In this document: positions 1-29,265 of the stretch, piece by piece
Numbering within the stretch: the stretch's first letter is position 1
How the letters are laid out: each line of letters begins with the position of its first letter
Translations under genes and position numbers: made by a program
Source of the DNA: an uncultured Thermoleophilaceae bacterium
GTDB taxonomy: Bacteria > Actinomycetota > Thermoleophilia > Solirubrobacterales > Thermoleophilaceae
Length of the DNA stretch: 64,000 bases
Assembly (NCBI GenBank): GCA_963830065.1
Contig: CAWHLA010000008.1
Coordinates: 1 to 64,000 of the forward strand
Direction: 5' to 3'
Notes under the pieces: model-generated
What the model saw: the letters and a program-made list of their open reading frames with translations, nothing else
The model's database searches: none
Told to the model about the DNA's origin: nothing

Positions 1-640
1 GTTCGCCGGGGTCATCGGCCGGGACAGGAGGCCGACCACTTCGACCTCGTCGCCGACCCGGACCGCGTCGAGGAAACCGGGGTCGGTGTCGCCAATGACC
101 CGCTCGACGGAGAGCCGCAGCCGCCCGGACGCCGGTTTCCAGCCGCCGCCGAGGTACAGTTCGCGGACGATCAGCACCGTCACCGCCCGGTCGGTCTTGC
201 GGGCCGGGCCGTACAGGTCGGTCCGGCCCGCCCGGCGGACGGTCGGCGGCTCGTCGATCACCCCGCGGACCTTCGCCACGACCGGGGCCGGGCCGGCGGA
301 ATTGCCGATATCGTCCGCGTCGAAACTGCGGACATGGGTGTGGTGGCGGGCGGCCGCCAGCCCGGCGAAAGCAAACCCAGAGGGCGGCGACCGCGAGGTC
401 CGGCCGCCGGGCGCAGGGCGACGACCCAGGCGACCAGCCCGCCGACGGCGGCCGCCAGCTCGGCGTCCAGCGGCAGCGGCAAGTAGCGGTCGGCGACCAG
501 GCCGGCGGCGACGGCCAGGGCGACCGGCACGAGCAGGGCGCGGGCGAACTCCCGCCACGCCGGCTCGGCCGGCCGCGGCGGGGCGGGGTCGTCCGGCGGC
601 GGGACGGTCGGTTCGGGCGATGTCGTCATCGGTACGCTCG
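1..640 (-). CDS. ComEC/Rec2-like N-terminal (DUF4131-like) fragment. It runs off the window start and is frameshifted.
   Basis: The minus-strand translation [14 protein letters not shown]...[21 protein letters not shown] (TM helices) is followed by ...[12 protein letters not shown]...VRGVIDEPP...[61 protein letters not shown]. This matches the ComEC N-terminal domain pattern. The reading frame switches at least once. Confidence 0.35.
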
Positions 641-686
641 CGCCGCCGGCTGGTCGAACGCGAGTCGTACCTTCTGAAATGCCGGC

Positions 687-1793
687 ATGGAAACCGTTCG
701 CGTCAACCTCGGCCCGCGGTCCTACGACATCGCGATCACGCACCGCCGACCCGGCCGGCGTCGGGCCGTTCGTCCGCGGCCGGCTGCCGCAGACGTCGGA
801 CTCGCCCTCGTCGTCTGCGACGCGAACACGCAGCTGCACGCCCGGGCCGTCGTCGAAGCCGCTCTCGCGGCCGCCGGGTTCCGCACGGCGCTCGCCGCCG
901 TGCCCGCGGGCGAGGCGTCGAAGTCGCTGGACCGAACTCGCCGCAGCTTGTACGACGCGCCTGGACGACCTCGCCGGCCGACCGGCAGGACGGCGGTCGT
1001 CGCGGTCGGCGGCGGCGTCGTCGGCGACCTGGCCGGGTTCGCCGCCGCGACGTACAACCGCGGCCTGCCGCTGCTCATGGTGCCGACGACGCTGCTGGCG
1101 ATGGTCGATTCGTCGCGTCGGCGGGAAGGTCGGCATCAACCACCCGACGGGCAAGAACCTGATCGGCGCGTTCCACCAGCCGGCCGGCGTGTGGATCGAC
1201 ACCGCGTTCCTCGACACGCTGCCCGACCGCGAGTACCGCAGCGGGCTGGCCGAGGTGGTGAAGTACGGCGTCATCCTCGACGCCGACGTTCTTCGCGTGC
1301 CTGGAGGCGAACGCGGCCGCGGTCCTGCGCCCGCGACCCGGCGGCGGTGCGGCACGTCGTCGCGCCGGTCGTGCCGGCTGAAGGCCGACGTGGTCGAGAA
1401 GGACGAGCGCGAGGAGACCGGGCTGCGGGCGGTGCTGAACTACGGCCACACGTTCGCCCACGCCTTCGAGACGGTCGGCGGGTACGGGGCGTGGCTGCAC
1501 GGCGAGGCGGTCGCGGCCGGCATGGTCTGCGCGCGCCGGCTGGCCGAGCGGCTGGGCCTGATCCCGCCCGGACGTGACCGCGCGGCAGATGGAGCTGCTC
1601 GAAGCGTTCGGGCTGCCGACGGCGCCCGACCGCCGAGTGGCCGACGCGACGAGCTGATCGCGGTCGATGCGGCGCGACAAGAAGGCGGCCGGCGGGCGGA
1701 CTGCGGTTCGTCCTGCCCGACGCGGCTCGGCGAGGTGAACTGTTCGACGACGTGCCCGAGCAGCTCGTCCGCGAGGTGCTGGAGGCGCGATGA
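687..1793 (+). CDS. aroB: 3-dehydroquinate synthase (AroB), broken by at least 4 frameshifts
   Basis: Three frames carry consecutive AroB segments: [15 protein letters not shown]..., [126 protein letters not shown], and the C-terminus [30 protein letters not shown]. Confidence 0.7.
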
Positions 1794-3060
1794 CCTACTC
1801 GACGGCGCGGCCGCGTGGCTCCGCGAGCGGCTGTGGTATCGCCGAGTCGCGGCCGGGTCCGTGGCGTGGGCTCGTGTGGCTCGGCAGCCTCGCATCGGCG
1901 GACGGGCGCAAGGACGCCGACCTGAACGGCGAACTCGTCGGGGCCGACCACCTCGCGTTCTACACCGCCGCCCGGCTGATCCGCGACGGCCGGCCGGAGC
2001 AGCTGTACAACTACGACGTACCTCGACGAGAGTACCAGAGCGAACTCCTCGGCCGTGGGACTGGTGGACGGCGTTCGGGCTACCGCAACCCGCCGTTCTA
2101 CGCGCTGCTCTACCTCCCGACCGCCGGCCTGCCGTTCTACGCCGAGCTGCCGTGTCTGGACCGCGGCAGTCGGCTTCGCGCTGCCTGTCGCGCTCGCGAT
2201 CGTCAGCCTGCCTGCCGGCCGGACCGCACCCGTGGCCGCGCGCTCCCTGTGGGCGCTCACGTTCTACCCGGTGTTCGCGCGCCGATCAGCTTCGGGCAGA
2301 ACACGCTGCTCAGCCTCGGCGATCTTCGCCGGCGTGTACCGCCTGCTCGCGGCGACCGGCCGTTCGCCGCCGGGCTGGTCGCGGGGTTGCTCTGGTTCAA
2401 GCCGCAGCTGCTGCTCGGGCTGTTCGTGTGGTGGGCTGCTCGAATCCGCCGGCATATGGCCGTGCTGGCTCGGGGTGCGCGTCACCGGGGCGGTCCTCGC
2501 GGCGGTCAGTTGGCTCGCGCTGCCGGAGGCGTCGCGGGCGTTCGTCGGGACGCTCCGCGAGAACGTCGGGTTCGGCGGCGAGCAGTGGAACAAGCACACC
2601 CCGCGGGCGTTCTGGCGCGCTGCTCCTGCCGGGCCTGCCGCCGGCGGCGGTGACGCTGAGCTCGCTGACCCGCGGGTGCGTCGTTCGGCTCGCGGCCGCG
2701 GCTCGCTGGCGGTCGCGTGGTCGTCTGGCGCGGCGGACCGGCGGGCCGACCTGCTGTGATGTTCCCCGTCGCCGTGTTCCTGTCGCTGCTGGGCGTCGCC
2801 GCACACGCTCGTCTACGAGTGGGCGCTGCTCGTCGCCGCCGCCGTCCTGTGGTGACCGGTTCCCGCCGCGACTCGCGCGACGTGTGGCTCGTGCCTGTTC
2901 GCGCTGGCGTGGCTGGTGCTGGCCGTCGAGCACGCCGCTGCGCCAAGCTGCAGTTGAACGGTCGTCCCGATGGCCGTGCAGGTCGAGCGTGCCGGTGCTC
3001 GGGTGGGCGTGTCGGCTGGCGCGGCGCGCGGGAGTTGGCGCGGTCGGCGGACCGCGATAG
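1790..3060 (+). CDS. DUF2029 / GT87-like integral-membrane glycosyltransferase-like protein, frameshifted
   Basis: [25 protein letters not shown]...[22 protein letters not shown] and [26 protein letters not shown] hydrophobic segments sit in different frames. The end point is uncertain. Confidence 0.4.
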
Positions 3061-3235
3061 CCGCGACCGTCCGGCGGTCGTCGGGACGTGGCGCACCGAC
3101 AGCTCGCACCGACTGCCGAACCGGCGGCCGGCTCCTTGACCGACCCGCGCGGGGCGCAGAATCCCGACAGTCCGGCCGCACACCGCCCGTGCCCCGCCTC
3201 GCCGGCCACGCCTCCTCCTGACGGACACCGCGGAC

Positions 3236-27723: not shown

Positions 27724-27793
27724 TGACCGTGAGCGAGTCGAGTCCGAGCGGACGTCCGCGACCGATGTCGACCTCGGCTCGACGACCTGCGAC

Positions 27794-28690
27794 ATGACCC
27801 CTCATCGAACTCGACGCGATCACCCGCACGTTCGGCACGTTCACCGCGCTGCACGACGTCACGCTGTCGCTGCCGCCGGGGCGGGTCGGGCTGCTCGGGC
27901 CGAACGGGGCCGGCAAGTCCACGCTGCTCAAGATCCTGATGGGGCTGCTCCCGCCGTCGCGCGGCACCGGCCGCGTGCTCGACCAGCCGACCTCGGCGGC
28001 GACCGCGACGCCGAGGGCAACTGGCGGCTGCGGCGGCTCATCGGCTTCATGCCCGAGGCCGACGCGCTCGTGCCCGGGCTGACCGGCGTCGAGTACGTCG
28101 CCCTGGCCGGCGAGCTGTACGGCATGCCGCGCCGGCAGGCCCAGCGCCGGGCCCACGAGGTGCTGTCGTACCTCGAACTGGAGGAGGCCCGCTACCGCCG
28201 CTCGAGGAGTACTCCGACCGGCATGAAGCAGCGGGCGAAGCTGGCCCAGGCGCTGGTCCACGACCCGCCGGTGCTGCTGCTCGACGAGCCGACCAGCGGC
28301 CTCGACCCGGCCGGCCGCGACGCCATGCTGCGGCTGGTGCCGCGCGCTCGGCACGCGACCACGGCAAGTCGGTGCATGCTCTCCACGCACCTGCTGGCCG
28401 ACGTGGAGGCGGTGTGCGAGCGGGTGGTGATCCTGGCCGGCGGGCGGGTCCGCGGGCAGGGGACGGTCGAGCGAGCTGTGCGCCCGCCGGCAGGACCGCT
28501 ACCGCTTGCGGGTGCAGGGCGACCCGGCCGCGTTCCGCGACGAGCTGGCGGCCGAGGGCGTGACGGTGCTCGGCCGACAACGGCCAGGGCGAGTGGCGGG
28601 TGGCGGTGCCGGCCGGCTGGTCGAACCTGGCGTTCTTCAAGCTGGCCGACGTGAACGACGTGGTCATCCGCGCGCTGCTGCCGCGACGAC
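27794..28690 (+). CDS. ABC transporter ATP-binding protein, frameshifted
   Basis: [63 protein letters not shown] (Walker A), then [43 protein letters not shown] (signature/Walker B). Confidence 0.6.
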
Positions 28691-28728
28691 GAGACGCTGG
28701 AGGAGCTGTTCCTCCGGACGGTGGCGAG

Positions 28729-29265
28729 TTAGCCGGACGCTGAGCAGCGAGCGCGAGCCGTCGCTGCTCGACGTCGCGGCTGACTCGCCGCTACCGACGC
28801 CGATGCCCGCGCACACCGACACCCTGTTGCGCTACCGCCCGTGGCGCGGCACGCTGCACGGGCCGCTGTGCGCGGCCGTGGCGATGGCCCGGGTGTCGCT
28901 GCGGCTGCATGTTCCGCCGCCGGCTGTTCTGGGGGCTGTTCGCCCTCGGCCTGCTCGTGTTCTTCTTCTTCTTCTACGGCCAGTACCTCGTCGTCTGGAT
29001 CACGCAACCAGCTCGCCGACCGAGACCGTGCCGGTTCGCCGGCATCCCGGTGCACGCGTCGACGACCTGACGAAGTTCCTCGACCGGCTCGCCCTGAACG
29101 GCACCGCCCACACGTTCGGCAACTTCATCTGGTTCGAGGGGTACGTGCGTCGTGATCGTGCTGGCCCTGGCCGGGTCGGTGCTGGTCGGCAACGACTTCT
29201 TCCACGGCAGCCTGCCGTTCTACCTGTCGAAGCCGATCGGCCGGTGGCACTACGTCCTCGGCAGC
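28729..29265 (+). CDS. ABC-2-type permease fragment, frameshifted and cut off mid-gene at the junction
   Basis: LLRYRPWRGTLHGPLCAAVAMARVSLRLH, RLFWGLFALGLLVFFFFFYGQYLVVWITQ, IVLALAGSVLVGNDFFHGSLPFYLSKPIGRWHYVLG. No plausible continuation follows ~29265. Confidence 0.4.

Follow-up and report, generated by a model that had tools for sequence, protein, structure and literature searches.

Gene content and origin of the two arms

The window analyzed here, a stretch of 64,000 nucleotides (nt) from contig CAWHLA010000008.1 of an assembly assigned to an uncultured Thermoleophilaceae bacterium (GCA_963830065.1), consists of two arms that differ in taxonomic affinity and in the integrity of their reading frames. 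The left arm carries genes of Gemmataceae (Planctomycetota) type whose frames are broken repeatedly by single-base insertions and deletions (indels), whereas the right arm carries intact genes of Solirubrobacterales (Actinomycetota) type; the two meet in a 24-nt interval at which the gene scpA is cut. The features of the window are listed below. Frameshift events were counted with a frameshift-tolerant protein-to-DNA aligner that we wrote, using reference proteins from related genomes as queries.

1-29,261: Gemmataceae (Planctomycetota) segment with ~1% single-base indels, mostly insertions; it extends past the left end of the window
687-1817, plus strand: aroB (3-dehydroquinate synthase), frameshifted; 14 events against the DHQS_N and DHQS_C gene calls of the Gemmataceae contig L081 (see below)
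3218-5415, plus strand: myo-inositol-1-phosphate synthase with AP_endonuc_2 (sugar isomerase-like), frameshifted; residues 1-730 of the 732 of the reference, 82% identity, 26 events
6070-6924, minus strand: phyH (phytanoyl-CoA dioxygenase family); 88% identity, 0 stops, six 1-nt insertions
7058-10070, plus strand: PVC-type heme-binding CxxCH protein, frameshifted; 10 + 19 events
10208-11928, plus strand: ggt (gamma-glutamyltranspeptidase), frameshifted; 80% identity, 0 stops, 22 events
16136-16847, minus strand: C-terminal part of a histidine kinase, frameshifted; recognized from frame segments and a stitched peptide
17878-18328, minus strand: YcxB-like gene with a Pfam YcxB match; no frameshift detected
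19580-20513, minus strand: hflC, frameshifted; 7-9 events in 934 aligned nt
20682-24018, minus strand: P-type ATPase fused to a Band-7 domain (~1,100 amino acids [aa]), frameshifted; 71% identity, 0 stops, 37 events in 3,337 aligned nt
23982-26634: nearly error-free stretch of 2.6 kb within the noisy arm, holding a sigma/TIGR03067-like gene (24,252-25,892) and rpmA (26,020-26,249)
26533-27723, plus strand: argJ, frameshifted; 86% identity, 0 stops, 11-14 events in 1,191 aligned nt, varying with the reference (14 entered in the totals)
27801-28480, plus strand: ABC transporter ATPase with a Pfam ABC_tran match, frameshifted; frame +3 changes to +2 between 27,968 and 28,028
28908-29261, plus strand: putative ABC-2-type permease fragment, the last coding sequence on the Gemmataceae side, cut at the junction; called from the appearance of its peptide ('...LPFYLSKPIGRWHYVLG')
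29262-29285: junction interval, 24 nt between two unrelated sequences
29286-29495, minus strand: 5' fragment of scpA (residues ~1-72 of ~246), cut by the junction
29286-64000: Solirubrobacterales (Actinomycetota) segment with clean frames
29497-30486, minus strand: trpS, intact
49302-63547, minus strand: dcw cluster, intact in the 10 genes tested (rsmH, a gene for an ftsI-like penicillin-binding protein, murE, murF, mraY, murD, ftsW, murG, murC, and ftsZ)

The best protein matches of the left arm belong to Gemmata and other Gemmataceae, at 71-88% amino acid identity. The PVC-type heme-binding protein, once stitched together, matched Gemmata and Gemmataceae proteins best, at 77-80% identity over the whole query; the initial annotation, made from the sequence before these searches, had correctly taken this gene to be frameshifted but had called it a 1000-aa dehydrogenase, an identity that its best matches do not bear out. 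The best match is encoded on L081 (ENA ERZ26871208, contig_219330_np1212), a Gemmataceae contig that is syntenic with window positions 431-11,931 and carries ComEC, aroB, a GT87 gene, the inositol-1-phosphate synthase with AP_endonuc_2, PhyH, the heme-binding protein, and GGT. On a second contig, L082, only the last three of these (PhyH to GGT) are represented, and BLASTN aligned pieces of the left arm to both contigs at 73-86% nucleotide identity. ArgJ, HflC, and the ATPase-Band-7 fusion likewise had their best named matches in Gemmata, Gemmataceae, and Frigoriglobus. Of what had been described as HflK/C genes, part is the Band-7 domain (PF01145) of the ~1,100-aa P-type ATPase fusion, and hflC is a separate gene at 19,580-20,513; among the best matches bearing a name, this fusion occurs in Gemmataceae and in other Planctomycetes.

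The related contigs differ from the left arm in composition, with 63% G+C in L081 and L082 against 72.3% in the Gemmataceae arm, despite ~72-86% nucleotide identity (mostly ~80-85%) in the shared genes. Split genes are found on them as well: in L081, aroB (2031-3240) is called as 217 + 171 aa and the heme-binding protein (10001-12994) as 484 + 474 aa, and in L082 the heme-binding protein (10001-13034) is called as 522 + 368 aa. These splits suggest that sparser frameshift errors are present in those assemblies too. The suffix "_np1212" is presumably a NextPolish tag on a Flye contig name, which would hint at long reads with short-read polishing for the related contigs.

On the right arm, a search of TrpS against one genome per species returned 80 loci, almost all from Solirubrobacterales or Thermoleophilaceae metagenome-assembled genomes (MAGs), the closest at 76% identity; the window FtsZ shares 92% identity with that of one of the Solirubrobacterales MAGs. 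One locus with a Solirubrobacterales-type trpS (76% identity to the window) lies in a MAG labelled "uncultured Alphaproteobacteria bacterium" (L003, CAWJAY010000055.1). The open reading frame (ORF) of its ABC ATPase paralogue has the same length as the counterpart in the Solirubrobacterales MAG L002 and lies ~50 nt from the position of that counterpart, and L003 may be a mislabelled or contaminated bin.

The junction is bounded on the right by the end of ScpA homology on the minus strand, which stops at 29,286, and on the left by the putative permease peptide on the plus strand, which appears to stop at 29,261 (a limit read by eye). A boundary near 29,265 had been proposed initially, and these limits both agree with it and narrow it to 29,262-29,285. 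In the relatives, judged from those of the 80 loci with an ORF match at this place, scpA (~246 aa) lies directly downstream of trpS, and every ORF adjoining trpS that matches the window does so only over residues ~1-72. Pfam SMC_ScpA matches only positions 1-45 of its 232 profile positions, and when eight orthologues were searched again with relaxed thresholds, scpA residues 73-246 had no counterpart in any frame of the window. At the position of scpA, all 80 relatives lack foreign DNA. The final frame switch on the left side falls at ~29,148 and none follows it; the error regime therefore shifts within ~140 nt of the junction, and the taxonomic switch and the error-regime switch coincide. G+C content is alike across the junction (72.3% on the left, 71.6% on the right).

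The join is present in the deposited record. The 547-aa database protein P0121 is identical to the window ORF at 13,622-15,265, wrong-frame stretches included; this ORF is mostly a wrong-frame translation of a frameshifted gene, and P0121, listed in both the NCBI and ENA protein collections, forms a cluster of its own at 90% identity. P0121 from the left arm and TrpS and an AMP-ligase from the right arm are each recorded, in NCBI and ENA, on one contig of 412,355 bp. That they share a deposited contig rests on the identical contig size together with the single recorded contig per protein, and the join thus belongs to the deposited contig and does not come from the cutting of the window.

Frameshifts in genes that are otherwise intact

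Because G+C content is ~72% throughout the window, raw ORF lists are uninformative. A frame plot of G+C at third codon positions (GC3) showed stable long frames only from ~29.3 kb to 64 kb, with frame switches every few hundred bases to the left of that point, and stop-to-stop ORFs with a coding signature were plentiful on the right and nearly absent on the left. A periodic Markov decoder with seven states agreed with this left/right picture and placed the regime change at 29,279; since reference-free Viterbi frame decoding finds only about half of the reference-supported events, it was used for a per-kb profile and not for counts. In alignments to close homologues, the left arm contained 165 frameshift events in 16.5 kb, or ~1 event per 90 nt outside its clean stretch, with 105 events in the 9,380 aligned nt between 687 and 11,928 (one per 89 nt). 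The number of left-arm events per 100 nt fits a Poisson distribution (variance/mean 0.94). As a control, 8,721 aligned nt of the right half produced two calls, both at alignment edges, and no internal frameshifts, and the 10 dcw proteins matched NCBIfam models over most or all of each profile. The homologue alignments, the frame plot, and the right-half control thus agree that the dense left-half frameshifts described initially are real and that the right half is mostly clean; the density first given, one indel per 250-300 bp, is roughly a threefold underestimate.

The initial annotation also held that every gene on the left longer than ~500 bp needs repeated frame changes, but the 1.64-kb sigma/TIGR03067-like gene is not so densely affected. 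This gene aligns over 545/545 aa at 73% identity and needs only two corrections, where ~18 events would be expected (Poisson P=2e-6). It lies in the stretch at 23,982-26,634, over the whole of which ~29 events would be expected, and the reference-free profile counts 1, 0, and 1 frame switches per kb at 24-27 kb against 3-10 elsewhere on the left. The intactness of rpmA, which has an L27 Pfam match, was confirmed, but its shortness alone does not account for it, as rpmA sits within the same clean stretch. The YcxB-like gene is also intact as reported, with no frameshift found in its 450 nt; at this error rate, chance alone would leave about two error-free gaps of roughly this length in 29 kb. 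The clean stretch is not a third organism, as its genes are complete and Planctomycete-like. Our guess is that it probably reflects locally better read support. Over the sigma domain, the database protein P0246 reaches 94% identity; the JGI contig that encodes it is not syntenic with the window.

Pfam searches of the left arm found YcxB-like, L27, ABC_tran, FHA, and HATPase_c domains. In the stitched histidine kinase peptide, HATPase_c scored above the curated Pfam cut-off and HisKA scored more weakly, at 20.5 bits (cut-off 26.9).

Apart from their frameshifts, the genes of the left arm show none of the marks of decay. The frame-corrected proteins align end to end with their references (ArgJ 392/392 aa, the ATPase-Band-7 fusion 1094/1095, PhyH 284/284, the sigma-like protein 545/545, and GGT residues 5-572 of 572), and there are no in-frame stops in ~3,800 codons of the best-reference alignments of PhyH, DUF7133, cytC, GGT, ArgJ, the ATPase, and the sigma-like protein. 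Where at least 97% of ~100 homologues agree in an alignment column, corrected ArgJ departs from them at 0 of 170 assessable positions (homologues average 1.15 deviations), and the DUF7133 domain does so at 3 of 122, within the 0-6 seen among homologues. Had ~1% indels accumulated by decay, substitutions and nonsense codons should be far more numerous. Because the corrected proteins are full length, lack stops, and keep their invariant residues, we conclude that these genes are intact in the organism and that the indels are technical. Comparison with reference orthologues thus gives ~1% indels with no excess of substitutions at conserved sites, in agreement with the initial view that stop codons are not in excess and that the indels are uncorrected errors.

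The errors are mostly insertions. Across all best-reference alignments we counted 122 1-nt insertions, 16 2-nt insertions, and 27 1-nt deletions. Unperturbed L081 genes aligned to L082 proteins as a control gave one call. Simulated pure insertions yielded 340/31/10 calls in these three classes, simulated pure deletions 28/3/177, and a simulated 50:50 mix 96 1-nt insertions, 5 2-nt insertions, and 87 1-nt deletions. The simulations show that the method detects insertions and deletions symmetrically, and hence insertions make up ~80-87% of the real events. The DNA alignment of window positions 6,073-8,427 to both L081 and L082 agrees with this, as the 1-nt changes private to the window comprise 15 insertions and 1 deletion; it also bears out the phyH insertions at 6106, 6239, 6393, 6544, 6758, and 6900. 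The calls in hflC depart from this insertion-dominated pattern, most of them being deletions of 1 nt or insertions of 2 nt; reference identity is lower there (66-68%), which makes these calls less certain.

The initial annotation had regarded homopolymer errors as the probable source of the indels, a view that the inserted bases contradict. Among the 48 insertions resolved to the base (for example, at 1666, 1701, 2619, 3894, and 3954), 38 differ from both neighbors, 9 lie in a run of two, and 1 lies in a run of three, whereas simulated random insertions were distributed 121/67/26/7 by run size; the real insertions therefore fall in fewer homopolymer contexts (Fisher p=0.002). G or C accounts for ~85% of the inserted bases. 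Homopolymers are shortened by a few of the deletions, for example AAA>AA and CCC>CC. Insertions adjoin codon position 3 in 31 of 38 cases against 54 of 83 simulated ones, a difference that is not significant (p=0.087), and no sequence motif or methylation-like motif was found around the insertions. We also considered contraction of homopolymers as a reading of the smaller number of G/C runs of at least 5 on the left than on the right and dropped it as evidence: that comparison sets two phyla side by side, and run spectra are similar in the Gemmataceae references.

Explanations for the join and the indels

Based on these observations, we consider it highly probable, at about 0.9, that the contig is a technical chimera in which Gemmataceae sequence was misjoined to a Solirubrobacterales chromosome and left unpolished, an artifact without biological novelty. 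A chimeric contig had been suggested at the outset, and the abutting of Gemmataceae and Solirubrobacterales sequence where scpA is cut, with both arms in one deposited contig, supports that suggestion. We propose that the 412,355-bp contig comes from a long-read metagenome assembly and is misassembled, with at least 29.3 kb of a Gemmataceae genome joined at 29,262-29,285 to the Solirubrobacterales chromosome. The join itself could have arisen, for example, from a chimeric read formed by ligation or in silico or from a spurious graph join. The left arm would then be supported by a single noisy long read or by very few such reads, at a depth too small to polish, so that ~1.1% random single-base indels would have escaped proper consensus correction and broken the reading frames, while the Solirubrobacterales arm would have been well polished. 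Inter-phylum chimeric contigs have been documented for long-read metagenome assemblers (bioRxiv 10.1101/2025.04.22.649783).

Several points count against this explanation. Both low depth on the left arm and clipped reads at the junction are suppositions rather than observations, and no adapter-like sequence is apparent on inspection of the 24-nt junction interval. The clean 2.6-kb stretch does not fit a simple model of a single noisy read. Finally, long-read consensus errors are described as mainly errors of homopolymer length (PMC9262707; PMC8812927), and an insertion-dominated spectrum that avoids homopolymers is atypical of them.

In one rival reading, both the join and the insertions would have come not from low depth but from consensus building or polishing over mixed sequences, such as collapsed Gemmataceae strains whose two alleles were kept as adjacent bases. 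An inserted base unlike both neighbors in 38 of 48 cases, and G or C about as often as third codon positions are, is what such a process might leave, and the weak excess beside codon position 3 and the two other Gemmataceae populations in a related assembly also fit. That excess falls short of significance, however, and the event counts are Poisson distributed rather than clustered as polymorphism usually is; we regard this reading as unlikely. A still less probable one, to which we give only very slight credence, separates the two anomalies and takes the indels as errors but the junction as genuine: a rare Solirubrobacterales subpopulation would recently have received 29 kb or more of Gemmataceae DNA at scpA and would be covered by very few noisy reads. 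It would account for one contig with a low-quality arm. Yet the signatures that would support an inter-phylum transfer of 29 kb or more of housekeeping genes, with scpA disrupted, are missing, as the window contains no tRNA genes and no meaningful repeats lie near the junction. Integrase or other mobile-element genes did not turn up among the genes examined, although no search was aimed at them. The 80 relatives, moreover, are all free of foreign DNA at this place, and chimeras between phyla are a documented assembler artifact (bioRxiv 10.1101/2025.04.22.649783).

Bacterial mutation is biased toward deletions. This is one of the reasons why we reject the alternative offered in the initial annotation, a Gemmataceae island genuinely acquired by a Solirubrobacterales chromosome and now decaying into pseudogenes, whose chance we put at next to nothing. 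The contiguity of both sequences in the deposited contig and the similar G+C on the two sides speak for such an island. Natural decay, however, adds many more substitutions than indels, and here ~1% indels are accompanied by no stops in ~3,800 codons and by untouched invariant residues; the events are ~80-87% insertions, mostly of 1 nt, and follow a Poisson distribution. The supposed island would consist of Planctomycete housekeeping genes (aroB, argJ, rpmA) still syntenic with Gemmataceae contigs. Its right border, the one within the window, cuts scpA and a putative permease, shows neither tRNA genes nor flanking repeats, and lies within ~140 nt of the shift in error regime.

If the contig is a technical chimera, the value of recognizing it lies in data hygiene. 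A 412-kb contig in NCBI and ENA, probably binned as a Solirubrobacterales MAG, holds at least 29 kb of Planctomycete sequence, and wrong-frame ORFs from it, such as the 547-aa P0121, are already in protein databases. Regions of this kind can be mistaken for horizontal transfer, for pseudogenes, or for novel protein families. As both halves have ~72% G+C, chimera screens based on composition would miss the join. The insertion-dominated, non-homopolymer spectrum may in turn point to a failed consensus or polishing step.

Comparison with known systems

In its dense 1-nt indels, whose correction restores proteins homologous to known ones, the left arm resembles the frameshift indels of low-depth Oxford Nanopore (ONT) and PacBio assemblies (PMC9262707; PMC8812927; Kastor, PMC12007338), and, as with low-depth long-read errors, the indels are confined to part of the assembly while other sequence of the same contig is clean. 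It differs from them in that long-read errors are described mainly as errors of homopolymer length, whereas ~80-87% of the events here are insertions that avoid homopolymers, and in that an error rate of ~1.1% is at the level of raw reads, unlike the consensus level of long-read assemblies.

Many consecutive genes with disrupted frames are also seen in pseudogene-rich reductive genomes and decaying islands. Unlike these, the window has no nonsense codons, no excess of substitutions at conserved sites, no large deletions, and no insertion sequence elements among the genes examined, and its indels are biased toward insertion rather than deletion. The window also resembles the inter-phylum chimeric contigs described in bioRxiv 10.1101/2025.04.22.649783, with which it shares an abrupt gene-level switch of phylum, a breakpoint that cuts genes, and synteny that ends at that breakpoint. 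The shift in G+C content that the same study suggests as one marker of such contigs does not mark this one, in which Gemmataceae and Solirubrobacterales sequence meet at ~72% G+C on both sides.

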